Below, one piece after another: positions 2,292 to 18,872 of a stretch of 41,996 nt of DNA. The position numbers were made by a program, and so were the translations under genes. This DNA is from an uncultured Gemmatimonadota bacterium (GTDB lineage Bacteria > GCA-2686955). Location of the stretch: assembly GCA_964490075.1 (NCBI GenBank), contig CAZBBK010000051.1:1-41996 (forward strand), given 5' to 3'. How positions within the stretch are numbered: the first letter of the stretch is position 1; each line of letters starts with the position of its first letter. The notes under the pieces were generated by a model. That model was not told the DNA's origin and ran no database searches. It saw only the letters and a program-made list of their open reading frames with translations.

Positions 2292-3304
2292 CCCTCGTGA
2301 CCCTGGCCCGCCCCCGTGCGCTCTTGGCGGCGCTCGTCTGTGTCTCGCCCGCCGCGGCGTCCCCCCCGTCCGGACTGGACGATGATGTCTCGAGCGTGGT
2401 GATCAACGAGATCATGTACAACCCCTCCGACTCGCTCGGCGCCGACGACGACTACCAGTGGGTGGAGCTCTACAACACCTCGGCACTGGCCGTCGATCTC
2501 CAGGGCTGGAGCCTGAACGACGCGGCACTCTCGGGCACGATCGGGGCGCACGACTACGCCATCGTGGCGCGCCAGGATCTCTCCGACCCCGATCAGGACG
2601 GCGCCTACTTCAGCGCCTTCTACAACCCTCAGCACGACTACCAGATCGAGCATCCGATCATCGACCTGGAGGGAGTCGACCTCGGCTTGGGGGACAGCGA
2701 CTTCGACCTGGTGCTGCGCGATGCCGAGGGGACGGCGATCGACTCCACCGGCTTCCACCCGGCGCCGGGCGGCGACGGCGACGGCTCCACCCTGGAGCGC
2801 CTGGTGGCGCCTTTCGTCGGCGACGTGGCCAACTTCGAGCCCAGCGCGCCACCCGAGCGCTTCGGCTCGCCGGAGGGTCAGAACTCGGTCTCGCCGGTGG
2901 TGATCGACGTGCTGCTGCCCGACGGCCCTTTCGAGCCGGGCGAGCTGGTATTGATCTCCGAGACGATCCTCAACCGCACCTCTCAGCCGCAGCCGATCTC
3001 GCTGATGCGCGCCCTGGAGCTCCCGGAGGACTTGGTCCTGCCGATCGACGTCCCGGAGCTGCCGGACTGGGTCGTGCTGCCGCCCGACTTCGAGCTCACG
3101 CTCGAGGCCGAGGTGGAGGTGCCGGAGCTCCTCCCCGAAGGCGGCTATGCCTACCAGGCAGCCTTCGGACGCGGCATCCAGTCGGCCGGATCGGAGTGGG
3201 AGGAGTTCATCGTGCGCACCAACGACCAGTCTTCGGAGCGCCGTCGGGTTCACAATTTTGTGAACTCCTGCGCGGCTTCGCCCAGAGCGATCCCGGCAGA
3301 CTGA
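2288..3304 (+). CDS. Secreted lamin-tail-domain (LTD) protein with shared C-terminal beta-sandwich domain
   Basis: The ATG overlaps the upstream stop (ATGA). Signal peptide, LTD signature VVINEIMYNP...QWVELYNTS...VDLQGWSL, acidic composition. Confidence 0.85.
3248..3265. promoter_or_regulatory. AT-rich palindrome, candidate upstream activator sequence for a sigma54 activator
   Basis: Perfect inverted repeat GTTCACAA-TT-TTGTGAAC about 100 bp upstream of a -24/-12 element, conspicuous against the GC-rich background. Confidence 0.6.
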
Positions 3305-3364
3305 GCCCCCGCGGCACGAAACCGGCGAAACGCCGGGATTCCTGCCCCGCCCGACCCCCGTGCC

Positions 3365-3380
3365 CGGCACGCATCCTGCA
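3365..3380 (+). promoter_or_regulatory. Sigma54 (-24/-12) promoter
   Basis: CGGCACGCATCCTGCA matches TGGCACG-N4-TTGC(A/T) with exact GG-N10-GC spacing, and a bEBP gene lies two genes upstream. Confidence 0.7.
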
Positions 3381-3628
3381 GTCCCTTCGGGCAGGCCTCC
3401 GGCACGGATTCACCGCGCCGGGCTCGGCCCACGGCTTCCCGCCCACGCGCTCAACCCTCTGCACGGCGTGGGTGGGAGGTCGTCGGTCCGGGGTCTCGAT
3501 GGACGAGTCGCCCGGGCCCGCAACCTGGTCGGCACCAGCCGTCGCGGGGGCGCGGTGACAGGCCGCGCCGAAGCGCCGGTGGGTCGACCCGCCGCCCCTT
3601 GCCGGGGCGGAGGAACCAGGACAGAACC

Positions 3629-4009
3629 ATGCTCCGTTCCATCATCGCCGCCGCCGCGGCCGCCTTCGCCTTCGCCGCCCACGCCCAGTGCGTTTCCTGC
3701 GGCATCGAGCTCAGCGCCGACTGTGTCGCCCCGGGCGGGCAGCTCGAGATCGACGTCTTCGTGACCAACGGCTGCGACCTGCCGGTCGAGGTCGAGGCCT
3801 CGCTGATCGCCCACGCCCCCGAGGGCGAGGAGTACGTGATCGAGGCGCGCACCTTCGTGCTGCCGCCGATCGAGGCCTCCGCCAGCTTCCTGCTCACCGT
3901 GCCCGAGGACATCGCCCGCGGCGACTACGACCTCGAGGTGACGATCCTCGAAGGCGACCACGTGAGCACCTGCGCCGCAGCAGTGACGGTCTCGGACGAC
4001 TGCGGTTGA
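3629..4009 (+). CDS. Small secreted Cys-containing beta-sandwich protein (signal peptide plus a stand-alone copy of the shared C-terminal domain)
   Basis: GGAGG/AGGA upstream of the ATG at 3629. Signal peptide MLRSIIAAAAAAFAFAAHA, motif VPEDIARGDY, six Cys. Confidence 0.8.
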   Translation: MLRSIIAAAAAAFAFAAHAQCVSCGIELSADCVAPGGQLEIDVFVTNGCDLPVEVEASLIAHAPEGEEYVIEARTFVLPPIEASASFLLTVPEDIARGDYDLEVTILEGDHVSTCAAAVTVSDDCG

Positions 4010-4824: not shown

Positions 4825-6492
4825 TCAGCCGCCCCGCTTCTCCTCCGCCACCCAACGCTCCATCCACCCCTCCAGCACGTCGAGCGGCACGCCGCCGAGG
4901 GCCAAGAGCCGGTCGTGCAGGCGGCGCAAGTCGAGATCGGGCAACGCCGCCTGGGCCGTCTCGCGGATCTTCGAGATGGTCAGCTCGCCGATCTTGTAGG
5001 CCAGCGCCTGGCCCGGCATGCAGATGTAGCGATCGACCTCGGCCACGATGTTGTGGCGCGAGAGGGCGGTCTCGCTGGCCAGGTAGTCGACCGCCTGGGC
5101 GTGCGACCAGCCCTTGTGGTGGATGCCGGTATCGACCACCAGACGCGCCGCGCGCCAGATCTCCATCGTCAGCCGGCCGAACTCCGAGTAGAGGTCGCGG
5201 TAGAAGCCGAGCTCCTTCGGCAGTCCTTCCGAGTAGAGCGCCCAGCCCTCCACGTAGGCGGTAAAGGTGCCGTACTTGCGGAAATCCGGCAGGTCCTCGA
5301 CCTCTTGGGCCAGGGCGATCTGTAGGTGATGACCGGGAACCGCCTCGTGGTAGGCGAGCGCCTCCATCGTGTAGCGCGGCCGCGACTCGGGCTTGTGCGT
5401 GTTGGCGTAGAACACCCCGGGGCGCTCGCCGGCGGGAGGCATGTAGTAGGCGTCGGGCGCGTTGGCGGCGCGATAGTCCTCGATCGGCCAGACCTCGAAG
5501 CCGGTCTTCGGCAGGCGGCCGAACATCCGCGGCAGCTCGGCCTGGACCGCGTCGAGGACGCCGCGGAAACCGGCCAGCACCGCGTCCGCGTTCTCGAAGT
5601 GCAGCTCCGGACGGCCGCGCAGGTGGTCGACGAACTGGTGCACGTCGCCGGCGAAGCCTGTGGCCTCCATGACGCGCGTCATCTCGCTCGCGATGCGCGC
5701 CACCTCTTCGCGGCCGATCTCGTGAATGCGGTCCGGCGTCAGGTCGGTGGTGGTGAAGCGCTCGGTGACGTGGTGGTAGATCTCGTCGCCGCGCGGCAGG
5801 GCGTGGACTCCGATCTCGGTGCGGCAGCGCGGCAGGTAGTCGCGCTCCAGGAACTCGGCCAGTTTGGCGTAGCTGGGGACCACCGCCTCGGCCAGGCAGG
5901 ACTCGGCCTGCGCCGCCAGCTCCTGGATCCCCTCGATCTCCTCGCGCGGCTCGGCGAAGGGTGTCAGGAGGGGACTCGGTCCGCGGCCGGCCTGCGCCTT
6001 CACCTGGTCGAGGATGGCGCGGAAGTTCACCGCGGCGCCCACCATGCCGCGCGCCATCCCCTCGCGCATCAGGTCGATCACCTGGTCGATCTGGCGCGGA
6101 AAGGCGCGCAGCCGTGCGATGTAGGAGAGCAGCCCCTCGCGGTCGGCGGTGGGGTGGATGGTGGCCAGCTGTAGGAGGTCGAGGTGGGGACCGAAGAGCT
6201 GGGTCATCGGGATCAGGTGGGTGTCGAGAGCGTTGCCGCGCAGGTTCGACTCCATCAGCGCGATGAAGATCTCGCGCTCGATCGCCTCGGCCTCGGAGAG
6301 CCGCAGCGGATCGAGGGCGCGGGCCCGGCGCAGGGCGTCGCGCTCGCGCTCGATCTCACGTTCGCGCTGGGCTCGAGAGTAGTCGTGCAGGCGATCCTCG
6401 AAACGGCGGTCGCCGAGCTGCGTGGCCAGCGTGGGATGGTCGTGGAGCAACCCCTCCCAGTAGTCGTGGAACAAGGACCGTAGGTCGGACAT
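4825..6492 (-). CDS. DUF885 family protein (metallopeptidase-like)
   Basis: HPTLATQLGD, YHEAVPGHHLQ, AYVEGWALYSE, WRAARLVVDTGIH, EVDRYICMPGQALAYKIG. GGAG precedes the ATG at 6492. Confidence 0.92.
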   Translation of the reverse strand: MSDLRSLFHDYWEGLLHDHPTLATQLGDRRFEDRLHDYSRAQREREIERERDALRRARALDPLRLSEAEAIEREIFIALMESNLRGNALDTHLIPMTQLFGPHLDLLQLATIHPTADREGLLSYIARLRAFPRQIDQVIDLMREGMARGMVGAAVNFRAILDQVKAQAGRGPSPLLTPFAEPREEIEGIQELAAQAESCLAEAVVPSYAKLAEFLERDYLPRCRTEIGVHALPRGDEIYHHVTERFTTTDLTPDRIHEIGREEVARIASEMTRVMEATGFAGDVHQFVDHLRGRPELHFENADAVLAGFRGVLDAVQAELPRMFGRLPKTGFEVWPIEDYRAANAPDAYYMPPAGERPGVFYANTHKPESRPRYTMEALAYHEAVPGHHLQIALAQEVEDLPDFRKYGTFTAYVEGWALYSEGLPKELGFYRDLYSEFGRLTMEIWRAARLVVDTGIHHKGWSHAQAVDYLASETALSRHNIVAEVDRYICMPGQALAYKIGELTISKIRETAQAALPDLDLRRLHDRLLALGGVPLDVLEGWMERWVAEEKRGG

Positions 6493-6625
6493 CGGGGGGC
6501 TCCTGAACACGTGTGGCCGGATGCGCCGGGGTCCGCTACCGTTGAGGCGCCGCCCGGCCGGGTCGGCGGTGGCATTGGAAAGGCCGAGATTCTATCCCTT
6601 CGTAGCGCTCTTGCCGCCTTTGGAA

Positions 6626-7564
6626 GTGAATCGTCGCGGATCGATCCTGAGCGCGGCCGACGCCCGCGGTGGGCTGCCGTGGGCCTATCTGGCCTTCGCG
6701 CTCGCCTGGATCGTGTTCGGTCTCAAGCTGGTCGCCTATCGCTGGACCGGCTCGGTGGTGGTGCTCTCCGACGCCCTGGAGGGACTCGTCAACATCGCCG
6801 CCGGCGCCTTCGCGCTCTTCGCGGTCTCGCTGGCCCAGCAGCCCCCTGACGACAACCACCCCTATGGGCACGGCAAGGTGGAGTTCCTGTCGGCGGCGAT
6901 CGAGGGCGGTCTGGTGGTCGGCGCCGCGTGCGTGATCGCCTACGAGGCGCTGCTCGATCTGGTTCGGGGCCCTGGAATCGACGCGGTGCGCGGCGGCAGC
7001 GTCCTGCTCCTGGCGTCGGCGGCGGTGAACGGGACGATCGGCTGGGCCCTGGTGCGCGCGGGGCGGCGAGTCGGCTCGGTGGCGCTCGAAGCCGACGGCC
7101 GCCACCTGCTGACCGACGTGGTGACCAGCATTCTGGCGATCCTGGCGCTGCTCCTGGTGTCGGCCACCGGGCTGGCGGTGCTCGATCCCTTGATCGCGCT
7201 CGGGGCGTCGCTGCTGGTGGCGCGCACCGGTGTGCGTCTGCTGCGGCGGGCGGTAGGGGGCATGATGGACGAGGCCGACCCCGACGACCTGCGGTTGCTG
7301 CGCCGGGCGCTCGCGGAGATCGACGAGCCTTTGGTGCGCGGCTACCGCGGGCTGCGATCGCGCCATCAGGGCAAGCTGCACCAGGTCGACGTGGCGCTCC
7401 TGATCGACTCTTCGATCTCGGTGGGGACGGCGGCGGCGGTGGCGCGGCGGGTGGCGCAGGCTCTGAAGGGGGCGCTCGGCGCAGCCGCGGTGTCGTGTCG
7501 GGTCGAGCCCTGGCGGGGCGACCCGACCAGCGAGGCGCCGGAAGTGTCGCTCGGGCCGGAGTGA
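6626..7564 (+). CDS. Cation diffusion facilitator (CDF/FieF-like) transporter; start uncertain
   Basis: LKLVAYRWTGSVVVLSDALE, PPDDNHPYGHGKVEFLSAAIEG, ALEADGRHLLTDV, several hydrophobic helices. Confidence 0.9.
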   Translation: MNRRGSILSAADARGGLPWAYLAFALAWIVFGLKLVAYRWTGSVVVLSDALEGLVNIAAGAFALFAVSLAQQPPDDNHPYGHGKVEFLSAAIEGGLVVGAACVIAYEALLDLVRGPGIDAVRGGSVLLLASAAVNGTIGWALVRAGRRVGSVALEADGRHLLTDVVTSILAILALLLVSATGLAVLDPLIALGASLLVARTGVRLLRRAVGGMMDEADPDDLRLLRRALAEIDEPLVRGYRGLRSRHQGKLHQVDVALLIDSSISVGTAAAVARRVAQALKGALGAAAVSCRVEPWRGDPTSEAPEVSLGPE

Positions 7565-9444
7565 TGGGCACCGACCACGACTTCCTGCCGATGACGGCGC
7601 ACGAGCTTGCCGCCCGGGGCTGGGAGCGCCCCGACGTGGTGTTCGTGACCGGAGACGCCTACGTCGACCATCCCGCTTTCGCGATGGCGGTGCTGGGGCG
7701 GGTGCTCGAGCAGCAGGGTTTTCGGGTGGCGATCCTGAGTCAGCCGAACTGGCGCAGCGTCGAGCCCTTCCGAGCTCTGGGCAGGCCGCGGCTCTTTTTC
7801 GCGGTAAGCGCCGGCAACATCGATTCGATGGTCAATCACTACACCGCCAATCGGTTGCCGCGCTCCGACGACGCCTACTCGCCCGGTGGCCGCGCCGGTC
7901 TGCGACCCGATCGCGCGACCAATGCCTACGTGCAACGCTGCCGCCAGGCGTTCAAAGGCGTGCCGGTGGTGGCGGGAGGGGTCGAAGCGTCGCTGCGGAG
8001 GCTGGCTCACTACGATTTTTTCTCGGACAAGGTGTTGCCTTCGATTCTGCTGACCTCGAAGGCCGACCTGGTGGTGCACGGCATGGGCGAGCAGGGAATC
8101 GTTGCGATCGCTCGGGGACTGGATGAAGGCCGGTCCTGCGCCGATCTCAGCGCGATGCGCGGCTGTGCCTACCTGACCGGCGCCAAGGGAGAACCGCCGC
8201 GGGAGGCGGTGATTCTGCCCTCGTTCGAAGAGGTAGCGCGAGACAAGGAGCTGTTCTCGCGCGCCACCCGGATGATCCACCGCGAGACCAATCCCCACAA
8301 CGCGCGGGTCGTGGCGCAGCGTCACGGCGAGCGCTGGGTGGTGGTGCAGCCGCCGGCAACGCCGCTGGCGGCGGAAGAGCTGGACCGGATCTACGCGTTG
8401 CCCTTCGCACGCGCCGCGCACCCCGGCTACCAGCAGGCGGTTCCGGCGCTCGAGACGGTGCGTTTCAGTGTGTCGCTGATGCGTGGCTGCTTCGGTGGTT
8501 GTGCGTTCTGCTCGATCACCCTGCACCAGGGCCGCATCGTGCAATCGAGAACGCGCCGATCGGTGCTCGCGGAGATCGATCGATTCGCCGCCGACGATCG
8601 CTACACGGGCGTAGTCTCGGATCTCGGCGGCCCGACCGCGAACATGTACCGCATGCACTGCACGCGGCCCGAGGTCGAGAAGATCTGTCGCCGGCTGTCG
8701 TGCGTGCATCCCACCGTCTGCAAGCTGCTCCAGACCAGCCACGCTCCCTTGCGCGACCTGATGCGCGCGGTTCGCGGCAGGCCCCGAGTGCGCAAGGCGC
8801 TGGTCGCCAGCGGGGTGCGGATGGACCTGGCGCTGCGCGATCGCGCCTACATCGACGACCTGGCGCGACACCACACCGGGGGGCGGATCAAGGTGGCGCC
8901 GGAGCACGTCGCGGCGCGCGTATTGGAGCTGATGAAGAAGCCGCCGATCGGCGATTTCGAGCGCTTCGCGGCCGCATTCCTGGAGTCGAGCGCGCGCGCC
9001 GGCAAGCGGCAGGAAATCGTTCCCTACTTCATCTCCTCCCATCCGGGAGCCGATCTCGAAGCGGCGCTGGAGCTGGCGCTCTTTCTGAAACGCACCGGCT
9101 ACCGGCCGCTGAAGATGCAGGATTTCATCCCGGCACCGATGGACATCGCCGCCTCGGCCTTCCACACCGGCATCGATCCTTTCACCATGCGCCCGGTCGC
9201 GGTCGCTCGGGGAACGCGCGCCCGCAACATGCAGCGCGCGCTCCTGCACTTCTTCAAGCCCGAGCACCATGCGACGGTGCGTCGCGCGTTGCGCAGCCTG
9301 GGGCGCAGCGATCTGATCGGCGAGCACGAGGGCGCGTTGATACGATCCACCGCGCCCCGGCCGAGCGCCGATTCGCCGGCCGCCCGAGCGTCGAAGGGAC
9401 AGCGGCGATCGGTGGGGTATCGACCCCATAGAAAGCGAGGCTGA
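7564..9444 (+). CDS. ygiQ: YgiQ family radical SAM protein (UPF0313)
   Basis: FLPMT...DVVFVTGDAYVDHP, DSMVNHYT, GGVEASLRRLAHYD, RGCFGGCAFC, DLGGPTANMY, KVAPEH, PYFISSHPG. The start overlaps the CDF stop (TGATG). Confidence 0.93.
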   Translation: MGTDHDFLPMTAHELAARGWERPDVVFVTGDAYVDHPAFAMAVLGRVLEQQGFRVAILSQPNWRSVEPFRALGRPRLFFAVSAGNIDSMVNHYTANRLPRSDDAYSPGGRAGLRPDRATNAYVQRCRQAFKGVPVVAGGVEASLRRLAHYDFFSDKVLPSILLTSKADLVVHGMGEQGIVAIARGLDEGRSCADLSAMRGCAYLTGAKGEPPREAVILPSFEEVARDKELFSRATRMIHRETNPHNARVVAQRHGERWVVVQPPATPLAAEELDRIYALPFARAAHPGYQQAVPALETVRFSVSLMRGCFGGCAFCSITLHQGRIVQSRTRRSVLAEIDRFAADDRYTGVVSDLGGPTANMYRMHCTRPEVEKICRRLSCVHPTVCKLLQTSHAPLRDLMRAVRGRPRVRKALVASGVRMDLALRDRAYIDDLARHHTGGRIKVAPEHVAARVLELMKKPPIGDFERFAAAFLESSARAGKRQEIVPYFISSHPGADLEAALELALFLKRTGYRPLKMQDFIPAPMDIAASAFHTGIDPFTMRPVAVARGTRARNMQRALLHFFKPEHHATVRRALRSLGRSDLIGEHEGALIRSTAPRPSADSPAARASKGQRRSVGYRPHRKRG

Positions 9445-9700
9445 AAGCGAGACTTGCAATAGCCCGGGGTTTCCCCCACAATTCGCTGCCCGATTGTATG
9501 GTCCGGGAGGCCGTTCAACCGAGCCAGCATGATGCGAAGCTCATCAGCCGCGGTGTCAGTTTCCACGGCACCGGCGAGCGCCGCCGTCGCGGGAAGGACG
9601 GGCGCTCCGGCCGGCAGGGGAAGTTGCGCTTCAGTACGACCGGAATGGACAAGCTGTTCGCGCAGGGGTGTTGCGCCCCGCGAGGGGTGAGGAGTCATCG

Positions 9701-10783
9701 ATGAGAGCGATTGCAGTTGCGAACCAAAAAGGCGGATGCGGCAAGACCACCACGGCGATCAACCTCGCCTGGAGCCTGTCCCAGAGGCAGCGCAGGACGC
9801 TGCTGATCGACATGGACCCGCAGGGTCATGTCGCCGTCGGGCTCGGCCTGCAGATCGAGAGCCCGCCGGCGACGCTCGCCAGTCTGTTGCTCGAGGAAAG
9901 TGGAATCACTCCTCTCATCCGAATCGCCGTGGCGATCGATGAGCGGCTCTCGGTGGTGCCCTCGACCCTGAAGCTGGCGCTCCTGGAGCAGCGTCTGGCG
10001 GGCAAGAAGCGGCGCGAGCGTCGTCTGCAAGCGGCGCTGGAAAGCGCCGCCGGCGACTACGATTACGTGCTCGTCGACTGCCCCCCCAACCTCGGCATGC
10101 TCACCTTCAACGCGCTCTTCGCCTGCGACGAGATCATGATCCCGGTCGATACCAGCATCTTCGCCATCGATGGCCTGGCGCGCTTCATGGAGACCGTTTC
10201 GCTGGTCGAGGGTCATGCCGGACACGGCAAGGCGGTGAACATCTTGCGCACCAATCACGATCGCCGCACCCGTTATGCCCGCGCCGTCACCGAGCGCCTG
10301 ATCGAGCGATTCCCCGACCGGGTGTTTCAGACCGCGATCTCGCGCAGCGTGCGTTTCTGTGAGGCGGCCGAGCGCGGCGCGGCGATCGGCGCCCTCTATC
10401 CGAGCTCGCGCGGCGCCGGGGACTACACGTCGCTGGCGGCCGAGGTGATGCGCGAAGAGATCGCCGCCGCGGCGCGCAGCAACGAGATCCGTCACCTGCA
10501 CGAGTCGCAGCGGCCGATCGGCGAGCAGGTGATGTTTGCTCTGAACATGCCCTCGGCCGCCGACGTGCGCCTGGTCGGCGATTTCAACGACTGGGATCCC
10601 TCGGGAATCGCGTTGCGGCGCGAAAGCGGCGGCGAATGGACCACGGCGCTGTCGTTGCGGCCCGGGGATTACCAGTACCGCTTCCTGGTCGATGGCCGTT
10701 GGCTCTGCGATCCGGCCAACGAGCGCAGCGTCGAAAATGTGTACGGAGGACGCAATTCCCTGTTGGAGGTGGGGAGCGTCTAG
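9701..10783 (+). CDS. ParA/Soj-family ATPase fused to a C-terminal AMPK1-CBM/CBM48 glycogen-binding-like domain
   Basis: RBS GAGGAG. Deviant Walker A NQKGGCGKTT, IDMDPQG, DCPPNLG. C-terminus VRLVGDFNDW...GEW...LRPGDYQYRFLVDGRWLCDP...N.YGGRNS. Confidence 0.9.
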   Translation: MRAIAVANQKGGCGKTTTAINLAWSLSQRQRRTLLIDMDPQGHVAVGLGLQIESPPATLASLLLEESGITPLIRIAVAIDERLSVVPSTLKLALLEQRLAGKKRRERRLQAALESAAGDYDYVLVDCPPNLGMLTFNALFACDEIMIPVDTSIFAIDGLARFMETVSLVEGHAGHGKAVNILRTNHDRRTRYARAVTERLIERFPDRVFQTAISRSVRFCEAAERGAAIGALYPSSRGAGDYTSLAAEVMREEIAAAARSNEIRHLHESQRPIGEQVMFALNMPSAADVRLVGDFNDWDPSGIALRRESGGEWTTALSLRPGDYQYRFLVDGRWLCDPANERSVENVYGGRNSLLEVGSV

Positions 10784-11781
10784 TGCCCACTCCCGAGCAC
10801 CGGCACAGCGACCTGGACGAGATCGCGCATCTCTATTTCTCCGATGAGGGATGCGAGGGTCCAGGCGCCGGAGGGCCGGTGGTTTGTGTCTCGTCCTGGC
10901 GTCGGGCGCGTCTGAGCTTCGACGATCTGGCGGCGACACTCTCTTCCTGGGGCGTGCCGGCGACGGTCCTCGGACATTCGCCGGAGGGGGAAGGGCCGGC
11001 CGTCCAGGAAGGCGGCGTGGTGCTCTGGCCGGTGCCGGTCGAGACCTTGCGCCAGTGGCCCGGTGCGCCGATCGGTTACTTCGTCGCCATCTCGTGCGCC
11101 GACCGGGAAGCCCTGGTGGCGGGCTACGAGCTGGCCCGCAGCGTCGCCGAGCAGGCCCCGACCGGGATCTGGCTGTGGGCCGCCAACCGGCGCCGGCTGA
11201 ATCGCGCGCTGGAAGGAATCCGGGCGCTCTGGAACGAGCACGGAGCCGCCGGGCTGCCCTCGCTCTCTGGCGCCTGCGCCCTGGTGCACGAGTCGTCGGC
11301 GAAGTCGATTCTGAGGGTCTGCGGCCTGTCCGACGTGGTGCCTCCGGCGCGTTCCATGCCCCCACGCGATCCGCGACCGGCGCCGCCCACCGGTGCGGCG
11401 GTCTCGGTGATCCATGTCGACCCGGACGTGGCGGGAGTGGTGACGCTGCTGCACGCCAACACTCCGGGCACGACCTTGTGCCGCTTCGTTCGCGAGCTGC
11501 GCGCAGACGCACGCATCGAGGCGGAGGGCCGCGACCGCAGCATCCACATCGCCGGGCTGCCGACCGCGGCCCTGATCACCACCGACCGTCTGACGACCCT
11601 GCACATCGGCGATCAGGCGATGCTACTGACCGCCACCACCCTTCCGGATGCCTGCCGCTGGCTGGCGCGCCTGGCCGCGGGAAGCGCCCGCCCCGCGCAA
11701 CCGCGCCCGCTCTGGAACCCCCTGCCGGGAGCGGAGCTGGCGGCGGTGGCGGCGCTTGCGCGAGATCTGGCGGCGCCCTGA
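10783..11781 (+). CDS. Hypothetical protein, translationally coupled to the ParA-CBM gene; possible degenerate MinD/FlhG-like fold
   Basis: The GTG start overlaps the upstream TAG (TAGTG) and the ORF fills the gap to the convergent gene. Segment YFVAISCADREALVAGYELARSV...IWLWAAN. No Walker A. Confidence 0.6.
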   Translation: MPTPEHRHSDLDEIAHLYFSDEGCEGPGAGGPVVCVSSWRRARLSFDDLAATLSSWGVPATVLGHSPEGEGPAVQEGGVVLWPVPVETLRQWPGAPIGYFVAISCADREALVAGYELARSVAEQAPTGIWLWAANRRRLNRALEGIRALWNEHGAAGLPSLSGACALVHESSAKSILRVCGLSDVVPPARSMPPRDPRPAPPTGAAVSVIHVDPDVAGVVTLLHANTPGTTLCRFVRELRADARIEAEGRDRSIHIAGLPTAALITTDRLTTLHIGDQAMLLTATTLPDACRWLARLAAGSARPAQPRPLWNPLPGAELAAVAALARDLAAP

Positions 11782-11788
11782 GTAGTTC

Positions 11789-12166
11789 TCATGGCCCGGC
11801 GCCGGTGCGCCGCCGGTGCCAGACCGAGTAGTAGCGATAGCGCCCCGGCATGTGGCTGGCGACCGAGGCCAAGACCATGGCCGACGCCAGGAGGGGGATG
11901 CGCACAGCCGACCAGTGCGCGGCCAGGGCGATCAAGAGGCTCTTCAGGAGCGTCGCCACCCCGCGCAGCTCGACGATCCACACCGGTGCCCGACCGATGT
12001 TGACGGCGGCCAGCGCCGCGCCGCTGGCGGCGGCCCAGAAGAGCGCCCGGCCGAGCTCTTCGGCCCCGAACCAGACCCCTCCGGCGTACACCGAGAAGGC
12101 GCAGATATGAGCGGTGCGCAGAGCAATGCGCAGCCAGCGTTCGACTTGAGAGGGAGGTGCGGTCAT
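11789..12166 (-). CDS. Small hypothetical integral membrane protein (~4 TM)
   Basis: Hydrophobic helices, LRTAH and SHMPGRYRYYS motifs, fits between its neighbours. Confidence 0.75.
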   Translation of the reverse strand: MTAPPSQVERWLRIALRTAHICAFSVYAGGVWFGAEELGRALFWAAASGAALAAVNIGRAPVWIVELRGVATLLKSLLIALAAHWSAVRIPLLASAMVLASVASHMPGRYRYYSVWHRRRTGAGP

Positions 12167-12309
12167 GACCGGGCCGAATCATAGGCGAGCGCGCAGCGCC
12201 GGCACGCTAGTATCGGTGCGGTCGTCAGGGTCCCGCCGACTCTGCCGGGACTTCGGTCCGGCGGTGGCGCGGACCGCGGCAGACTCCGAGTCCCCAGAAC
12301 GAGGCAGAG

Positions 12310-13701
12310 TTGAACCAGCGCGAGCTCGCCGAGGAGCCATTCGAGCCCGGGGTCCTGCTCCGCCTCTCCGCGCCTCTGGTGGTCTCGTTCTGGATGCGCT
12401 CGGCGTTCACTTTCGTCGACACCATCTACGCCGCGACCCTGGGCGACGAGGCGATCGCCGCGATCGGCCTCTCGGTGCCGCTCGAGTTCCTCTTCATCGC
12501 CGTCTGGGTCGGGCTCTCCAACGGTTTGACCGCCACCCTCGGCGAGGCTTTCGGCGCTCGCGACGACAACCGCATCGCGCAGCTGCTGCGAGCGGCGCGC
12601 GGCATGGCCCTGTCCGCCATGCCGGTCTTCGTGGCGCTGGGGATCGCCATCTGGTTCGCGGCGCCGCGGATGGGGCTCGATCCCGGCGTGGCGCGTGCCT
12701 TCGCCGTCTACACGGCGGTGTTGATCACCGGCACCGGCCTCACCGGTTTCTGGTCGGTGATCCCCGACTCGCTGGTCAAGGCCCACTACGACACCCGCGC
12801 CACGATGATCGCCGGGATTCTGTCCAACGTCGTCAACCTGGTGCTGAACACGGTCTTTCTCTTCGTGTTCCACTGGGGGGTGTTCGGAATCGCCTTCTCC
12901 ACCGTGCTGGGACGCCTAGGTGGACTGGGCTACGCCCTGCGCCGCGCCTCGGTGCTGGAGCGGCGGCGTGACGTCGAGTGGAGGTCGGACACGGTCGCGC
13001 CGCCGCCAAGGGTCCCGGGGCCTGCCGAGAGCGCCCGCCGCGGCCCGAGCCGAGCGATCCTGGCACTGGCGGCTCCCTCCGCGCTCTCGTTTGGACTGAT
13101 GGCCTGTGAATCGGGAATCGTCAACCGCATTCTGGCCGGTTTCGATCAGGCCACCGCGGGAATCGCCGCCTACTCGATCTACCATCGAGTGGCCCTCTTC
13201 GCGGGGATGCCGATGATCGCGATCTCGGTGGCGGCGCTGCCCTACTTCGCGCGCGCCTTCGGGCGCAGCGATCTGCGCGCCATTCGCCGTGGTTTCGCCG
13301 AGGCGGTCGGGGTGTCGGCGCTCTATGTGCTCGCGCTCGTGGCACCGCTCAGCTGGCTGAGCGCCTCATGGATCTCCCGAGCTCTGGCCGACTCGCCTCA
13401 CACCATCGCGTTCGCGACTTTTGCCTTGAAGACAGTGCCGCTGGCCGGCCTGGCGACGCTGCCCTTCGTGCTCTGTCGCCCGGTCTTCGACGCCATGCAG
13501 CGCGGGGCCCCCAGCGCGATCATGGCGGTGGCCCGCTTCGCGGTGCTCACCTTTCCCTGCGCGCTGGCCGGCGCCCACGTGGCTGCGGCCCTGGGAAGGC
13601 CGGCGTTCGAGGGATTGATCGGCGGCTTGATCGTTGCCGGATTGACGGCATCGGGCGCCTTTCTGGTGTGGACGTCGACCGTCTTGCGGCGAGGGCGATA
13701 G
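12310..13701 (+). CDS. MATE family efflux transporter
   Basis: LLRLSAPLVVS, FVDTIYAATLGDEAIAAIGL, NVVNLVLNTVFLFVFHWGVFGIAFST, about 12 TM. TTG start with GAGG upstream. Confidence 0.9.
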   Translation: MNQRELAEEPFEPGVLLRLSAPLVVSFWMRSAFTFVDTIYAATLGDEAIAAIGLSVPLEFLFIAVWVGLSNGLTATLGEAFGARDDNRIAQLLRAARGMALSAMPVFVALGIAIWFAAPRMGLDPGVARAFAVYTAVLITGTGLTGFWSVIPDSLVKAHYDTRATMIAGILSNVVNLVLNTVFLFVFHWGVFGIAFSTVLGRLGGLGYALRRASVLERRRDVEWRSDTVAPPPRVPGPAESARRGPSRAILALAAPSALSFGLMACESGIVNRILAGFDQATAGIAAYSIYHRVALFAGMPMIAISVAALPYFARAFGRSDLRAIRRGFAEAVGVSALYVLALVAPLSWLSASWISRALADSPHTIAFATFALKTVPLAGLATLPFVLCRPVFDAMQRGAPSAIMAVARFAVLTFPCALAGAHVAAALGRPAFEGLIGGLIVAGLTASGAFLVWTSTVLRRGR

Positions 13702-13857
13702 AGCTTCCCCCGATCTCGGTGACCTCGTCGAAACGGACCGCCCGGGAGCCGGCGCGCTCCCCTCGGTGGTAGACTCGATGCAAGCGCGTCGCCTGAGCGG
13801 GACGGTCGTGGCGCGCACGCGCGATTGGAAAAGGCGGACCAAGTGCCGGACACGATC

Positions 13858-14412
13858 ATGGGGTTCTTGCGCACCAGCGTGCTCTGCTTGCTCGCCCTGT
13901 GCACTGCCGTCGCGGGCCCCACGTCGGCTGTCTCGGTCGCCGCCGTTCCGCCCACGGAAACCGAGATTCGGGGTGCCTTTCTGCTCAACTTCGCGGGCTT
14001 CGTGACCTGGCCCGAGGAGGGCGTCGGCGGGTCCGATGCGGAGACCGTCATCGGTGTGCTCGGCGACGAAGAGCTGCACGGGGTTCTGGCCTACGCGATC
14101 GAAGCGAGGCGACCAAGATCCAGCGGCATCAGCCTGGCCCTCATCGACTCCCTCGAGCAGGTGAAATCCTGCCACATCCTCTATGTCGGTGACGCGACCT
14201 CGATCTCCGCGCGCGAAGTGCTCTCGGTGGTGGGCGACCACCCGGTTCTCACGGTCAGCATGCGCCGCGGCTTCGCCGACCAGGGCGGGATCATCGGCCT
14301 GTTCTCGGAGCAGGGCCGCATGCGTTTCGACATCAACCGGCGCAGCGAGCGCCGCGCTCGACTCCAGATCAGCTCACGACTTCTCAGACTGGCCCGAAAG
14401 ATCCTGGAATGA
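13858..14412 (+). CDS. YfiR/HmsC family (DUF4154) periplasmic protein
   Basis: Signal peptide. EIRGAFLLNFAGFVTWP, CHILYV, PVLTVS...FADQGGIIGL, RFDIN...ARLQISSRLLRLA. Confidence 0.9.
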   Translation: MGFLRTSVLCLLALCTAVAGPTSAVSVAAVPPTETEIRGAFLLNFAGFVTWPEEGVGGSDAETVIGVLGDEELHGVLAYAIEARRPRSSGISLALIDSLEQVKSCHILYVGDATSISAREVLSVVGDHPVLTVSMRRGFADQGGIIGLFSEQGRMRFDINRRSERRARLQISSRLLRLARKILE

Positions 14413-14481
14413 TGGGGAACTAGCAACTGGGGGGCGCCGCCGAATCCGACCGGCCCAGCGCCCGAGCTCGGAGGAACGACG

Positions 14482-16455
14482 ATGATGCGACCAACTTGTC
14501 TCGGCCTGGCGTTTCTGATTGCGCCCCTGGCCGTCGGCTCCACGGCGCGTGCCGCCGCCCCCCGCCAGGACGTCTTCGATCTGTCGATCGAAGAGCTGGT
14601 CGAGATCGTCTACACCTCGTCGCGGCGCCCGCAGCAGGCCAGCCAGGCCGCGGCCAAGGTCTACGTGATCTCGGAGCAGACGATTCGCTCGAGCGGCGCC
14701 CAGAGCCTGGACCAGATTCTGCGGCGCGTGCCGGGGCTGCAGGTCCGCACCTGGCTGTGGGGATTCACCAATACCTCGATCCGAGGTCTGCTCGGCGGTT
14801 CGCCGATCAACGAGCGCCTGCTCTGGTTGGTGGACGGCGTGCCGATCAACGACGTGCGCGACGGCGGCATCTGGACCGACCTGACGGTCTTCCCCTTGCA
14901 GCTGGTCTCGCGCATCGAGGTGATGCCGGGGCCGCAATCCTCCATGTACGGCAGCAACGCCTTTCAGGGAGTGATCAACATCATCACCAAGGAGCCCGGC
15001 GCGGTGCGCTCCGGTGGCGAGTACAGTCTGAGCTTCGGTCGCGACAATACCACGCTGAACAGCGCCGCCGTGCCCAGCTACAGCGGTCCCTTCGAGTCGC
15101 TCTTGAGCGTGAACTACAGCGCCACCGATGAGCACCGCCTGGTCTCCGACCACTCGGGCAAGCAAGTATGGTGGGTGCGAGGTCGCAGCGACCTGGGACA
15201 GACCCGCTTCAACTATGGTGGTCGCTCGGCCCACCTCAAGTACCCCTCCATCTTCTCCAGTCCTTACCAGCGCTATGCGGAGCACCGCGACGAGATCTAC
15301 TTCAACGTCCGCCACGAGCAAGCCCTGGGAGAGCGGGCGCAGCTGCATCTGCAGCCTAGTCTCCACCACTGGCACGACCAGTTCTGGAACTTCGGCGACG
15401 TGCCGGGTCTGCAGTACGCCCAGGATTCTTTCCGGCTCAGCGCCCTGGTGCAGTTCCACGCGCGATTGAGAGCAAGCGACCGCTTGACCTTGGGCGCGGT
15501 GCTGCACCGCGAGCAGTACCAGGGCGACGATTTCCAGCCCGGTAGACAAGATCTGCGAGTCACCAAGAAGGAGCTCTACGGAGAGTACGAAGCGGCACTG
15601 GGAGACAGGGTGCGAGTGCTCCTCGGCGCCAACGTCAACGACTCGGGTCGCTTCGCCAACGACGAAAACGTCGCCTTCCTGCATCCCAGGCTCTCTCTGC
15701 TGCTGCGTCTAACCGACACCCTGGGCCTGCGCGGCGTTTACGCCACCGGCTATCGTCCCCCCTCCTGGTGGCATCTGTTCATCAACACCGTAGATGCCGA
15801 GGGCAATCCCGAGCTGCGCGCGGAGGAGCTGCGCGGTGGGGAGTTGGGGTTGGACTACGAGCTGCCCGCCGGCAGGGCCAGCGCCTACTTCTTCTTGCAG
15901 CGCGTCAGCGACGGAATTCTCGAGGTTTACGATCCTACCTTGGCCGATCCGGAGTATCTGCAGTACGGCATCTTCGGCAAGTTCCGGCCGATTCAGGCCG
16001 CCGGGGAGTTCAAGATCAGCGGCCTGGATCTACAAGCGGAATCCGAGGTGTTGGGTGATCGCTGCTTGCTCGGCGGCGCCTACTCCTACCTGCGCTCCCG
16101 GCAGCCCGATGGGCGGCAGACCCCCTACGACGCGGAGCACAAACTACAATTTTCGACTCTGTTTCGGCCGACCGAGCGCTTGAGCATGAGCTACGGGGTG
16201 CACTTCGTCGGGGAGACCGTCGATGCCGAGCTGGAGTATGCCCCGATCGATCCGGAAGACCCCGACGCCGGTCTGATCGGGCGCCGTCCGGTCGACTCCT
16301 ACCTGATCCACGAGCTCAGTCTGGGCTACAGCTTCGCCGGCGGTCTGGGACTCAGACTCTCGGTATGGGATCTGGGGCAGGAGAGCTATGAGCAGTACCT
16401 GGGCTCGGAGCAGCACGGAAATCTGTGGCTCGCGACGCTGAGCTACGCCCGTTGA
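14482..16455 (+). CDS. TonB-dependent receptor (plug plus beta-barrel)
   Basis: Signal peptide, [10 protein letters not shown], plug motifs [15 protein letters not shown] and [27 protein letters not shown], barrel motif GNPELRAE. Confidence 0.93.
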
Positions 16456-16520
16456 CCATGGAGTTGCATCGATCCGAAAGCGCCTGGCGGGAGGGTGGCG
16501 AAATTCGCCATCGACGCCTG

Positions 16521-18872
16521 ATGCCGCGCGTCTTTCTGGACATGTCGATCCGCCACAAGCTGCACTGGATCGTCATTCTCATTTGCGTGTTGATTCTGGT
16601 GCCGGTGTTGACCGCGATGATGGTCTTCGATCACGTGGCCACCACCCGCACGATCGGCAACAATTTCCAGATCTCGGCCCGGGTCACGGGCAGCCATGTG
16701 GCCTCTCCTCTGCTCTTCGACGATCCTCTCGCCGCGCAGGAATCGCTGCACAGCCTGCAACAGGACGAGCGCATTCTCGGCGCGTCGGTGCGCAGCGCCA
16801 CCGGAGAGCTCTTCGCGAGCCTGGCCACCGGCCGCGAGATCACCGCGCCGAGCGGCTTCGACCGCCAGCCGGGGGTTCACATCGAGGGCAACTTCGCGCA
16901 CATCGTGGAGTCGATCACCCACGACGGCGCCGAGCTGGGCACGATCTATCTGCAGGTCGATCTGGCGGAGCGCCGCGCGCGAATCATCGGCGCGCTGACC
17001 GTTCTCGCGCTGCTGGGATTCGTGGCTCTGGTGCTGGCGCTGCTGGTCTTTTCCGGCATGCAGGGCGCGCTGCTGATTCCACTGGAGTCGCTGGCGGGAG
17101 CGGCCCGCCAGGTCTCCGAGGATCAGGATTTCGGCCGTCGCGTGCCCAAGCTCTGCGACGATGAGACCGGCGAGCTGGTCGATGCCTTCAACGAGATGCT
17201 GGCGCAGATCGAGCTCCGCACCGTGGCCAAGGAGAAGGCCGACGCGGCGAACCGCGCCAAGAGCGAATTCCTGGCCAACATGAGCCATGAGATCCGCACC
17301 CCGATGAACGGGGTCATGGGGATGGTGACACTGTTACGCGACACCGAGCTGGACGACGAGCAACGCGAGTTCGTCGACAGCATCTCCAGCTCCGCCGATT
17401 CGTTGCTGGTGATTCTCAACGACATTCTCGACATGTCGCGCATCGAGGCCAGCGAGGTGGTCCTCGATCCGCGGCCTTTCGATTTGTGGCGCTTGATCGA
17501 AGACGTCGCGGAGCTGCTCTCCGGACGCGCGCTGGAGCGCGGCATCTCGCTCGACCTCGACCTGCCCCTGGAGCTGCCGCGGCGAGTGGTGGGAGATGCC
17601 GGTCGTCTGCGACAGGTCTTGACCAACATCGTCGGCAACGCGGTGAAGTTCACCGAAACGGGATCGGTGCAGGTGCGCGCCGCCGCGGAGCCCTCCGGGG
17701 AGGAGCGAGTGGCCCTGAGCATCGCCGTCAGCGACACCGGAATCGGTGTCAGAGAAGACCAGATCGACAAGCTCTTCGAGCGCTTCTCACAGGCCGACAG
17801 TTCCTACTCGCGACGCTTCGGTGGCACCGGCCTGGGACTGGCCATCAGCTGGCATCTGGTCGAGCTGATGGGCGGCACGATCGAGGTGCGCAGCATCCTG
17901 GGAGAGGGCTCCACCTTCACGGTGCGCTTGACCCTGCCGGTCGCCGAATCGCAGCCCTCGATGGAGCGCCTGCCCGAACCCCTGCGAGGGGAGCGGGTCC
18001 TGCTCCTGGAGAAGGACTCGGTGCGGCGCGAGATCGTGGCGCGCGACCTGGGGGCGCTCGGCCTCTCGGTGGCGAGCTGCGACGAGGTGGTGGCGGCTTG
18101 CCGGGCGCTCAGCTCCGAAGGGGGCGGATTCCGCTTGATCATCGCCGGCCGCAGCGCGAGCCCCGATGCCGCACGCAAGCTGGGAGGGGCGGTTCGCGCG
18201 GCCGCCCGGGACTCCGGTCTCACGCCCCTGTGGCTCGGTCTCGGCGACGGCTCTTTGCCGCGCGCGGTGACCGGCAATGACAACCTTCCGGTGATCCGCG
18301 TGCCATTGCGACGCAGCCAGGTGATTCGGGCTCTGAAGGCCGCCGGGATGCCGGAGCCGGCGGCGCCGGCGCGGCTCCCGGGATCGGCGGCCGGCAGGCC
18401 GCGCCCGGGAAGCGGCCCGCGAGTCCTGCTGGTCGAGGACAACGAGGTGAACCAGCAGGTCGGCACCCGCTTTCTCGATCTCTTGGGCTGTCGCGTGGAG
18501 GTGGCCGGCAACGGCCGCCAGGCCCTGGAGCTCTACCGGGCCTCGCGCCACGAGCTGGTGCTGATGGACTGTCACATGCCCGAGATGGACGGCTTCGAAG
18601 CGACCGTAGCGATTCGCGCGCTGGAGGGCGATCGGAGCCGGGTGCCGGTGGTCGCCCTGACGGCCAGCGTGCTGCCTGAAGACCAGCGCGCCTGCGAGCG
18701 TGCCGGAATGGACGATTTCCTCGCCAAGCCTCTCAGCCAGAGGGACCTGGCGGCGGCGCTCAAGAAGTGGTGCGGCTGGCCCCCCGATGTGGCCACGACC
18801 CCCCGAGGGGCAGTCGACCCAGCGGATGATGCAGCGCCCCGGCCGGGCGCAGCTCGCTCTCGAAAAGAGTGA
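16521..18872 (+). CDS. Hybrid sensor histidine kinase/response regulator (periplasmic CHASE8-like sensor, HAMP, HisKA, HATPase, pseudo-REC, REC)
   Basis: Two TM helices, [57 protein letters not shown]-terminal [13 protein letters not shown]...[12 protein letters not shown]...FLAKP. Confidence 0.95.

Follow-up and report, generated by a model that had tools for sequence, protein, structure and literature searches.

Why would a ParA-type partition ATPase end in a carbohydrate-binding module (CBM) of the kind found in the beta subunit of AMP-activated protein kinase (AMPK)? The question is raised by a two-gene locus in a 41,996-nucleotide (nt) stretch of DNA, here called the window, which comprises positions 1 to 41,996 of contig CAZBBK010000051.1 (assembly GCA_964490075.1) from an uncultured Gemmatimonadota bacterium. 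Judged from its domain matches and motifs, the product of the first gene, ParA-CBM, is an intact Soj-type ATPase joined through a flexible linker to an AMPK-beta-type CBM48 domain, and the second gene encodes a partner protein of 332 amino acids (aa). Our tentative answer is that ParA-CBM and its partner may form an ATP-switched system that tethers glycogen to the nucleoid, or positions it there, and is reset by the partner; we consider this quite possible, if somewhat short of probable. The placement and inheritance of glycogen in bacteria are largely unknown, and ParA-CBM offers a direct and testable entry point, because an ATPase bearing a glycogen module is conserved in many phyla. According to the available part of one report, glycogen bodies in Escherichia coli displace the nucleoid and skew division (PMC12706056).

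The fusion architecture itself is not new. The accessible part of a preprint dated 22 October 2026 (10.64898/2026.10.19.760177) catalogs a "CBM-containing system" in which ParA is fused to AMPK1_CBM, places it in a branch named ConB5, and proposes an immune sensor, arguing from rapid divergence of the CBM. A preliminary description of our locus had allowed that the fusion might already be cataloged, and so it is, with an immune role instead of a role in positioning granules. A literature search found no other paper joining ParA with CBM48 or glycogen binding. Because the family is cataloged there, the window's own value is modest; added here are a fused form of the partner, the observation of a shared peptide, and evidence against the immunity argument. 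Immunity and granule organization make opposite predictions.

An orphan Soj-type ATPase with a conserved CBM

The features of the pair are as follows, A1 being an alignment of 39 ParA-CBM fusion sequences from several phyla.

9701..10450, + strand: ParA/Soj-type ATPase domain of ParA-CBM, residues 1-250 (Pfam, solved relatives, A1 columns)
10451..10540, + strand: poorly conserved linker, residues 251-280 (16% mean pairwise identity; length varies in A1)
10541..10783, + strand: AMPK-beta-type CBM48 module, residues 281-360, with the TAG stop (Pfam, phmmer, A1 columns)
10766..10777, + strand: Shine-Dalgarno-like GGAGGTGGGGAG, inside the end of the ParA-CBM gene (read from sequence)
10783..11781, + strand: partner gene, 332 aa (open reading frame, codon-position GC, homologs P0122, P0123, and P0124)
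10807..10845, + strand: partner N-terminal peptide SDLDEIAHLYFSD, residues 9-21 (matrix rank; likeness to ParB N-termini)
10867..11334, + strand: degenerate P-loop nucleoside triphosphatase (NTPase)-like alpha/beta domain of the partner, residues ~29-184, as modeled (AF2 model, VIA-align)
11401..11682, + strand: predicted C-terminal beta-rich domain of the partner, residues ~207-300 (AF2 secondary structure)

The open reading frame (ORF) of ParA-CBM spans 9668..10783 on the + strand, and its ATG at 9701 gives a product of 360 aa. In Pfam the ATPase matches AAA_31 (E value 2.6e-48, 164.8 bits, residues 1 to 170) and CbiA (2.5e-18). A deviant Walker A motif with its signature lysine, KGGCGKT, lies at residues 10 to 16 and is accompanied by DMDPQ, VDCPP, DRRTR (187 to 191), and SRSVR (214 to 218), bearing out the earlier statement that the Soj-type ATPase is intact and carries KGGCGKT, DRRTR, and SRSVR. 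Across A1, K10, G11, G12, G14, K15, and T16 are each present in 39 of 39 sequences; D37, D39, and D126 (Walker A' and Walker B) are likewise invariant, R189 is found in 39/39, and residue 218 is Lys or Arg in 36/39. We take R189 to be the counterpart of Bacillus subtilis Soj R189, a non-specific DNA-binding arginine; ParA-CBM retains the residue aligned with it, and DNA binding is predicted. The best solved relative of the ATPase is a ParA family protein of Myxococcus xanthus (8RAY_B, 2.2e-50, residues 2 to 252), and Soj of Thermus thermophilus (1WCV/2BEK) and of Helicobacter pylori (6IUB) match as well, the end-to-end matches ranging from 2.2e-50 to 1e-31. As a separate observation, the P-loop reads KGGCGKT in all 39 fusions, with Cys always at residue 13, whereas two solved ParA relatives that were aligned have Val or Ala at this position.

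The genome has a separate canonical Soj and a true ParB, the pair sitting on another contig, C75, with ParB_N (8.5e-35), HTH_ParB, and ParB_C matches, and ParA-CBM is therefore an additional, orphan ParA. No ParB domain adjoins it, its partner is without a Pfam match even at E values up to 1, and no parS-like repeats were found. The gene that follows overlaps ParA-CBM by one base (TAGTG), between the stop codon TAG at 10781-10783 and the partner's GTG start at 10783-10785, and on this layout it is translationally coupled to the ATPase gene; both the missing parB and the coupled gene had been noted before and hold. The Shine-Dalgarno-like GGAGGTGGGGAG, 6 to 17 nt 5' of the GTG, putatively serves this start. 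GC by codon position is 0.74/0.58/0.84 in the partner gene, a coding-type pattern, versus 0.66/0.48/0.84 in the ParA gene. ParA-CBM and its partner resemble ParA/Soj-ParB in that the ATPase aligns end to end and the partner peptide looks like ParB's motif for ParA binding; unlike those systems, the pair has an extra C-terminal CBM48, no ParB, CTPase, or helix-turn-helix domain, and a partner body modeled as an NTPase fold that lacks a P-loop.

The C-terminal module exceeds the curated cutoffs of two Pfam families: AMPK1_CBM, with 1.9e-13 and 50.9 bits versus a cutoff of 26.8 (residues 286 to 358, nt 10556-10774), and CBM_48, with 6.9e-8 and 33.2 bits versus 22.4 (residues 275 to 334). The AMPK1-CBM/CBM48-like domain of the preliminary description is thus found exactly where it had been placed. 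In phmmer it matches the AMPK beta CBM structures 2F15, 1Z0M, 1Z0N, and 4Y0G at ~1e-7 and, more weakly, the N-domains of pullulanase and GlgB. F295, W298, G322, Y326, D331, W334, D337, and G349 are invariant in A1, which includes the two Trp residues pointed out earlier as typical (W298 and W334, each 39/39); residue 327 is Lys or Arg in 39/39, and N352 is kept in 37/39. The FNDW, YRF, GRW, and NS motifs of the window's CBM pair with FNNW, YKF, GQW, and NN of 2F15/1Z0M, which we take to be the glucan-contact residues of AMPK, and the family pattern (FNxW, YxY[RK]F, DGxW, and NS) is invariant or nearly so. With these contact positions kept, the CBM is predicted to bind alpha-glucan. Since ParA-CBM has no membrane or secretion module in Pfam, any alpha-glucan ligand would be cytoplasmic glycogen. 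The module shares its aromatic and polar ligand positions with AMPK beta and with the CBM48 of branching and debranching enzymes; unlike in those proteins, it sits on a partition ATPase, not on a kinase scaffold or a glycoside hydrolase.

Mean pairwise identity in A1 is 47.1% for the ATPase, 43.9% for the CBM, and 16.2% for the linker. By these figures the CBM is under strong purifying selection, nearly as conserved as the ATPase. They bear directly on the proposal, in the available part of the ConB5 preprint, of a carbohydrate-sensing defense system, in which infection-linked glycans or a depletion of polysaccharide would be sensed through the CBM, ParA would be the effector, multimerizing on nucleic acid, and further sensing would come from an inactive second ParA together with an inactive restriction-endonuclease-like protein. 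The rapid CBM divergence from which that role was argued is not seen in the 39 sequences (44% versus 47% for the ATPase, with invariant ligand positions), and we regard a defense role for ParA-CBM as improbable. Fast-evolving partners would fit such a role (ParA-CBM is 65% identical in the closest genome, partners 50 to 53%), as would certain gene layouts described below.

A large family that follows taxonomy

The distribution of the fusion offers a second point of comparison. Among the best 120 of 3574 matching clusters, to which the homolog figures refer, PF16561 is present in 120/120, identity is 35 to 65% over 95 to 100% of the query, and length is mostly ~350 to 390 aa; their source names go no further than "chromosome partitioning protein," "AAA family ATPase," and "BcsQ." A scan of one genome per species gave 80 loci, in 28 of which the match spans the CBM, the other 52 being ordinary Soj genes. 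The fusions carry the labels Thermodesulfobacteriota, Myxococcota, Planctomycetota, Omnitrophota, Vicinamibacterales, Rokuibacteriota, Auribacterota, and unclassified bins, and the fusion is a large family found in at least eight phyla. In the window's own phylum it occurs in four of the five species genomes of the collection, the fifth genome being 84% complete and in 830 contigs. A sample of 81 Omnitrophota genomes contained 47 with a match at E values up to 1e-65; 38 of these reach the CBM, and 9 are Soj proteins ending near residue 250.

A FastTree phylogeny of 31 fusions and 6 Soj outgroups, from which locus L017 was excluded, united the fusions in one clade with a support of 99. Within it the fusions group by phylum, with 11 label changes versus a minimum of 10 and none of 200 shuffles as low; because of this grouping, the fusion looks mainly vertically inherited. 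The ParA-CBM gene behaves like a housekeeping gene, common within phyla and with a tree that follows taxonomy, which speaks against a defense system. The same is true of its surroundings, which are housekeeping in character and without mobile-element genes, and of the lack of an effector domain.

A fast-evolving partner in a conserved place

A word-index search found two relatives of the partner, 50% and 52% identical, and a HMMER family-profile pass over 1.84 billion representatives returned four proteins, of which P0125, a repeat protein, is spurious. By these searches the partner evolves very fast, and its body is undetectable by sequence search at the level of class. The place of the gene can be followed by synteny: a downstream gene on the same strand is present in all four ParA-CBM genomes of the phylum, that is, the window's and 3/3 others. 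In the sister genome G002 the partner lies directly downstream and is 53% identical, versus 65% for ParA-CBM. Genome G004 has a 330-aa downstream gene whose start overlaps the ParA-CBM stop as ATGA. Genome G001 (locus L095) has two abutting genes in the partner's place, 2581-3300 (239 aa) and 3301-3759 (152 aa), the former with the N-terminal peptide and a degenerate alpha/beta part, and the 332-aa partner of the window looks like a fusion of such 239- and 152-aa genes.

A single-sequence AF2 model of the partner (pLDDT 42.3) was discarded. AF2 with an alignment of five sequences gave a pLDDT of 64.8 and a pTM of 0.69, with an alpha/beta part at ~30 to 184 and a beta-rich part at ~207 to 300. 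Compared with 48,161 chains by VIA-align, the model matched best the MinD-like FlhG 4RZ2_A (Z 10.3, rmsd 3.1, 149 residues aligned, model residues 29 to 183), followed at Z values of 8.7 to 10.2 by CooC1, NifH, ApbC, FleN, MinD (9.4), and two ParAs (8.9 for ParA). No GxxxxGK[ST] Walker A motif is present anywhere in the window's partner. Because VIA-align ranks FlhG, MinD, and ParA mixed with GTPases, the modeled N-terminal domain is read as a P-loop-NTPase fold, which would suit a dead ParA/MinD domain without proving one. Foldseek searches with the same model were set aside as weak and mixed: the best E value (3.5e-4) belonged to an unrelated GH3 enzyme, and FlhG, BchL, and NifH reached probabilities of 0.94 to 0.98 at E values of ~1e-2. 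Matches in the ESM Atlas were unnamed Planctomycetota clusters (0.94) and, as a lead only, a MinD/ParA cluster (0.80).

A ParB-like peptide shared by all partner types

How, then, can partners be recognized across phyla? One short N-terminal peptide is common to all partner types in distant phyla, and MAFFT over all of them aligned this peptide only. In loci L013, L017, L020, L025, and L039 it has LG[RK]GL or LKRGL followed by ..S[HK].F; the form LGRGL(E/A)D.SH.FL(S/T) is seen in L013, L017, L020, and L025, and L039 has LKRGLADLSKFF. Three Planctomycetota partners have (D/N/S)LSEISHLFLS, those of Myxococcota R(D/N)L..V..YF(L/M)P, and that of the window SDLDEIAHLYFSD. ParB N-termini have the same core: ALGRGLSALIP in the ParB of the window's genome and LG[RK]G[LI].A[LF] in ten other ParBs. 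In the available part of a published study (10.1101/2025.03.14.642875), the ParB motif is the ParA-binding, ATPase-activating element. We propose the peptide SDLDEIAHLYFSD as a candidate ParA-docking motif with a putative role in ATPase activation. The terms "N-terminal peptide," "ParB-like," and "activating peptide" are all absent from the accessible part of the main text of the ConB5 preprint.

For scoring, a 12-position matrix was built from eight partners, all outside the window's phylum, and the training loci were scored leave-one-out. The matrix is crude, its chance top scores in 52 generic loci having a median of 8.3 and reaching 17.0, and it ranks the window peptide second of 72,491 six-frame positions in the window. 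Scores of at least 8 occurred within 360 nt past the ParA-CBM stop in 17 of 31 testable loci (16 without L019, whose match was judged spurious and set aside) versus 10 of 540 random windows. By eye, the motif was also seen in L015, L043, L093, L094, and L095 and in the upstream gene of five Omnitrophota-type loci. The preliminary description had made conservation of the partner beside the fusion a test of its proposal; the partner is conserved as a class through this shared peptide, and the sequence of its body is not traceable.

A complex prediction with a dimer of ParA residues 1 to 262, ATP, and partner residues 1 to 60 scored 0.34 (runs of 0.31, 0.42, and 0.34), the best of three controls scoring 0.00, with a partner pLDDT of at least 40 and a contact agreement of at least 34%. 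Of 157 solved complexes, 116 attain the mark of that prediction, as do 2 of 215 mismatches; at scores of 0.60 or under, just 18 of the 157 and both mismatches do.

Partner bodies in other phyla

Behind the peptide, partner bodies differ among lineages. A second ParA-like gene follows ParA-CBM in L013, L020, and L023 (Pfam ParA/CbiA); its Walker A motif is kept in L020 (7089-7949, GKGVRGKT) and L023 (1174-2088, GDRTPGKS) and lost elsewhere. As these two loci retain GxxxxGK[ST], the second ParA cannot be taken as dead in every lineage. A nuclease-like family, A6, with the pattern ID.LAVD...IIDFE, is clear in L013, L014, L017, L018, L020, and L025 and presumably resembles NucS. In L017 and L025 the partner consists of the peptide and the nuclease-like domain alone. 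The C-terminal domain of the window's partner is possibly the counterpart of this inactive nuclease-like gene. In L013, a stand-alone 101-aa CBM48/AMPK1_CBM protein (6340-6642, - strand) comes after the ParA-CBM, ParA-like, and nuclease-like genes.

In a clade of the Omnitrophota type, the gene upstream of ParA-CBM encodes a single-pass membrane protein with its main domain outside the cytoplasm; it has an N-terminal peptide of the DIYEHLAKIYLD type in the cytoplasm, a stretch rich in Lys, and a beta-rich domain on the outside. These upstream membrane genes are located as follows.

L016, 3287-3853: upstream membrane gene, Omnitrophota type
L019, 5401-5961: upstream membrane gene, Omnitrophota type
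L021, 5414-5989: upstream membrane gene, Omnitrophota type
L024, 334-930: upstream membrane gene, Omnitrophota type
L026, 1210-1788: upstream membrane gene, Omnitrophota type

The membrane gene is itself preceded by a GH57 gene and a gene for an alginate-export-like porin.

These layouts correspond to ConB5 as set out in the available part of the preprint, in which ParA with a C-terminal AMPK1_CBM has two elaborations, either a single-pass membrane protein that is encoded upstream and has a second CBM-like domain, or a second ParA accompanied by an inactive nuclease-like protein; both elaborations are in common with our loci. Unlike in ConB5 as described there, the window has its second ParA-like part and C-terminal domain fused in one 332-aa protein. 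The agreement with the second variant, a ParA-like gene with or without Walker A followed by a NucS-like gene without the catalytic E.K, counts in favor of the defense proposal.

The partners in L017 and L025 suggest another possibility, an accessory DNA-partition system, since a ParB-like peptide joined to a nuclease-like domain is the layout of a centromere-binding protein. The nuclease-like part would then be a ParB analog on a DNA site, and glycogen bodies would be an anchor or sink for the ATPase. We hold this to be very unlikely for the window, where canonical ParAB is encoded elsewhere in the genome, the locus sits on the chromosome and shares its synteny with YgiQ with the sister genome, and hhalign failed to connect the C-terminal domain with the nuclease-like family (probability 0.22). 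Nor is a centromere-like repeat or palindrome array present in 9400-11900, where the only palindromes are two of 12 nt inside coding sequence.

Glycogen genes and defense context of ParA-CBM loci

If the CBM is to bind glycogen, carriers of the fusion should make it, and the preliminary description had named fusions in genomes without glycogen synthesis as evidence against its proposal. At least one of five alpha-glucan markers is present in 31 of 33 carrier genomes. The marker glgA (TIGR02095) is above its cutoff in 17 of the 33, including the window's genome (487 bits versus a cutoff of 328), which also has three GH57 matches; a GT5 domain is found in 10 of 13 further carrier genomes tested, GlgE in 2, GlgB above cutoff in 6, and GH57 in 27. 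With GT5 domains also in 12 of 14 control genomes, the co-occurrence fails to refute the glycogen reading and supports it weakly; the two carriers without a marker are G006 and G027.

In 5 of 32 loci, a glycogen gene is found no more than three genes away from ParA-CBM and on its strand. GH57 is two genes upstream in L016, L019, L021, and L026, which form one clade. In L028 (1996-5577), ParA-CBM is followed on one strand by a GT5 glycogen-synthase-like gene and then by GH57; no peptide-bearing partner was detected in this locus. A GT5-GH57 pair on contig C13 of G025 was rejected as a neighbor, not being linked to the ParA-CBM contig.

PADLOC found no genuine defense match among the two window proteins and 109 neighbors from 28 loci, the few matches falling on domains of a generic kind in FtsK, MerR, a metallo-beta-lactamase, and a sigma factor, and this again counts against a defense system. 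A weak match of the nuclease-like partner L013_d2 to the defense candidate PDC-S11 (24.7 bits) is in its favor.

A possible ATP-switched glycogen-nucleoid tether

What could the combination do? The preferred reading, that of a tether or positioning system, would work as follows. An ATP-bound ParA-CBM dimer would sit on the nucleoid and present two CBMs, and because the dimer presents two, its hold on glycogen would show dimerization-dependent avidity. MinD has a C-terminal membrane-targeting helix; ATP dimerization would double its surface valency, and a small activator resets it. ParA-CBM would follow the same logic with its dimer-dependent hold on glycogen. Both have a surface-binding element at the C terminus of a ParA/MinD ATPase, a likeness that is analogy only; unlike MinD, ParA-CBM would have glycogen as its surface, and what is appended to it is a carbohydrate-binding fold of 80 residues. 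With its ParB-like N-terminal peptide the partner would dock where the two ParA subunits of the dimer meet, stimulate ATP hydrolysis, and so reset the tether, and its degenerate ParA-like body, perhaps with the nuclease-like body, might be a dimerization or anchoring scaffold. The net effect would be glycogen granules anchored or spread along the nucleoid and shared between daughters, as McdAB does for carboxysomes.

McdB is a disordered or coiled-coil protein, as opposed to the degenerate NTPase fold modeled for the window's partner. In McdA/McdB and other orphan ParA/MinD systems, as far as the available parts of the sources describe them, an orphan ATPase likewise stands next to a fast-evolving partner without a family, and the cargo is cytoplasmic and not DNA, as we infer for ParA-CBM. 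Unlike in McdA/McdB, the cargo-binding module is on the ATPase, not on the partner. PhaM and PhaF tether polyhydroxyalkanoate granules to the nucleoid and are passive and ATP independent; they would resemble ParA-CBM in that one protein binds both storage granule and DNA and shares granules between daughters, and their sequences are unrelated to it. The unusual design of ParA-CBM thus lies in a cargo- or surface-binding module placed on the ATPase and a constant ParB-like peptide on interchangeable partner bodies. Of the preliminary description, the anatomy stands, most of the refuting conditions that it set do not overturn it, and its glycogen-granule positioning goes beyond that anatomy as pure conjecture.

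Several observations weigh against the tether. The window peptide is without the LG[RK]GL part, 4 of 540 control windows equal its score of 9.8, which several generic loci exceed with their best chance match, and a chance match of 17.0 occurs inside the neighboring YgiQ gene of G002; the support that complex prediction lends to docking on ParA is weak. The MinD/FlhG match of the partner's fold is interleaved with the GTPases FeoB and SelB within one Z unit. In hhalign, the window's partner family and the ParA-like partner family gave a probability of 0.12, and a comparison with nuclease-like family A6, pairing residues 207 to 240 with the ID.LAVD motif, gave 0.22, neither of them significant. 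The window shows no glycogen-gene synteny, four of the five positive loci are one clade, carriers G006 and G027 (of unknown completeness) have none of the five markers, and co-occurrence is weak evidence because alpha-glucan markers are common anyway, as the GT5 count in controls illustrates. A Brownian ratchet usually needs its activator on the cargo, and the partner shows no glycogen-binding module that would place it there (no carbohydrate-binding module was detected in it by Pfam at E values up to 1). The peptide-bearing partner of the Omnitrophota type, a membrane protein with its main domain outside the cytoplasm, fits a nucleoid ratchet poorly. Finally, the sole paper on the family, in its accessible part, reads the fusion as an immune sensor (10.64898/2026.10.19.760177).

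The varied partner bodies behind a constant peptide fit a recruitment switch as well as a motor, which brings in a further alternative. ParA-CBM could be a glycogen-linked regulator or scaffold whose dimerization recruits the partner or enzymes to glycogen, or informs the chromosome or the division apparatus of the glycogen load, while granules stay unmoved. AMPK uses its CBM as a regulatory glycogen sensor, and the CBM of ParA-CBM matches AMPK beta structures. The tight operon in L028 with a GT5 synthase and GH57 could likewise mean enzyme organization, and the ParA/MinD relatives MipZ and PomZ, in the available parts of the sources, regulate division and not cargo. No enzyme or signaling output domain is found by Pfam in the window pair, however, and a DNA-binding-type arginine together with a ParB-like activating peptide are hallmarks of cycling, gradient-forming ParA systems; we consider a regulator or scaffold unlikely.

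An extension of the tether also deserves mention, although we would not expect it to be correct. Glycogen might be a third matrix for ParA/MinD ATPases, beside nucleoid and membrane: with two CBMs per ATP-driven dimer, ParA-CBM would keep a stable grip on the granule surface, and a partner with a ParB-derived peptide would strip it off. The partner's anchor would be DNA, the membrane, or a scaffold of dead ParA according to lineage, and protein patterns on or between glycogen bodies would space or size granules or hand them to daughter cells. If true, this would be the first energy-driven organizer of polysaccharide stores, one present in at least eight phyla.

Upstream region and neighboring genes

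Expression of the pair probably starts from a conserved stretch ahead of ParA-CBM.

9454..9527, + strand: upstream conserved block (alignment of window 9440-9710 with L093 1230-1510 of sister genome G002)

The block contains TTGCAA (9454-9459), a 17-nt spacer, and CACAAT (9477-9482), with TTGCAT and GACAAT as counterparts in G002, and is likely the promoter and leader of the two-gene unit. A scan for the sigma-70 consensus called no promoter at the locus, this block included. Between the block and the start codon, ~150 nt of leader (9536-9685) have no counterpart in G002; a 68-aa ORF (9498..9704) that overlaps this insert is probably not coding. No Rfam match falls within 9300-12400, and two terminator-like sites are at chance level, both inside genes.

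By Pfam, the window's 26 genes are housekeeping and regulatory, with no glycogen, defense, or mobile-element genes around the pair. Upstream are genes for a sigma-54 activator, DUF885, a cation-efflux protein, and the YgiQ radical-SAM protein; downstream are those for a MATE pump, YfiR, a TonB receptor, a hybrid kinase, PP2C, ClpB, and HflX. The locus is present in four DNA runs, all from one marine metagenome study, and no RNA run is listed. Past the MATE gene, a cluster of genes on one strand (13825-18872) encodes a YfiR/HmsC-like protein, a receptor of the TonB-dependent type, and a hybrid histidine kinase that has a CHASE8 sensor.

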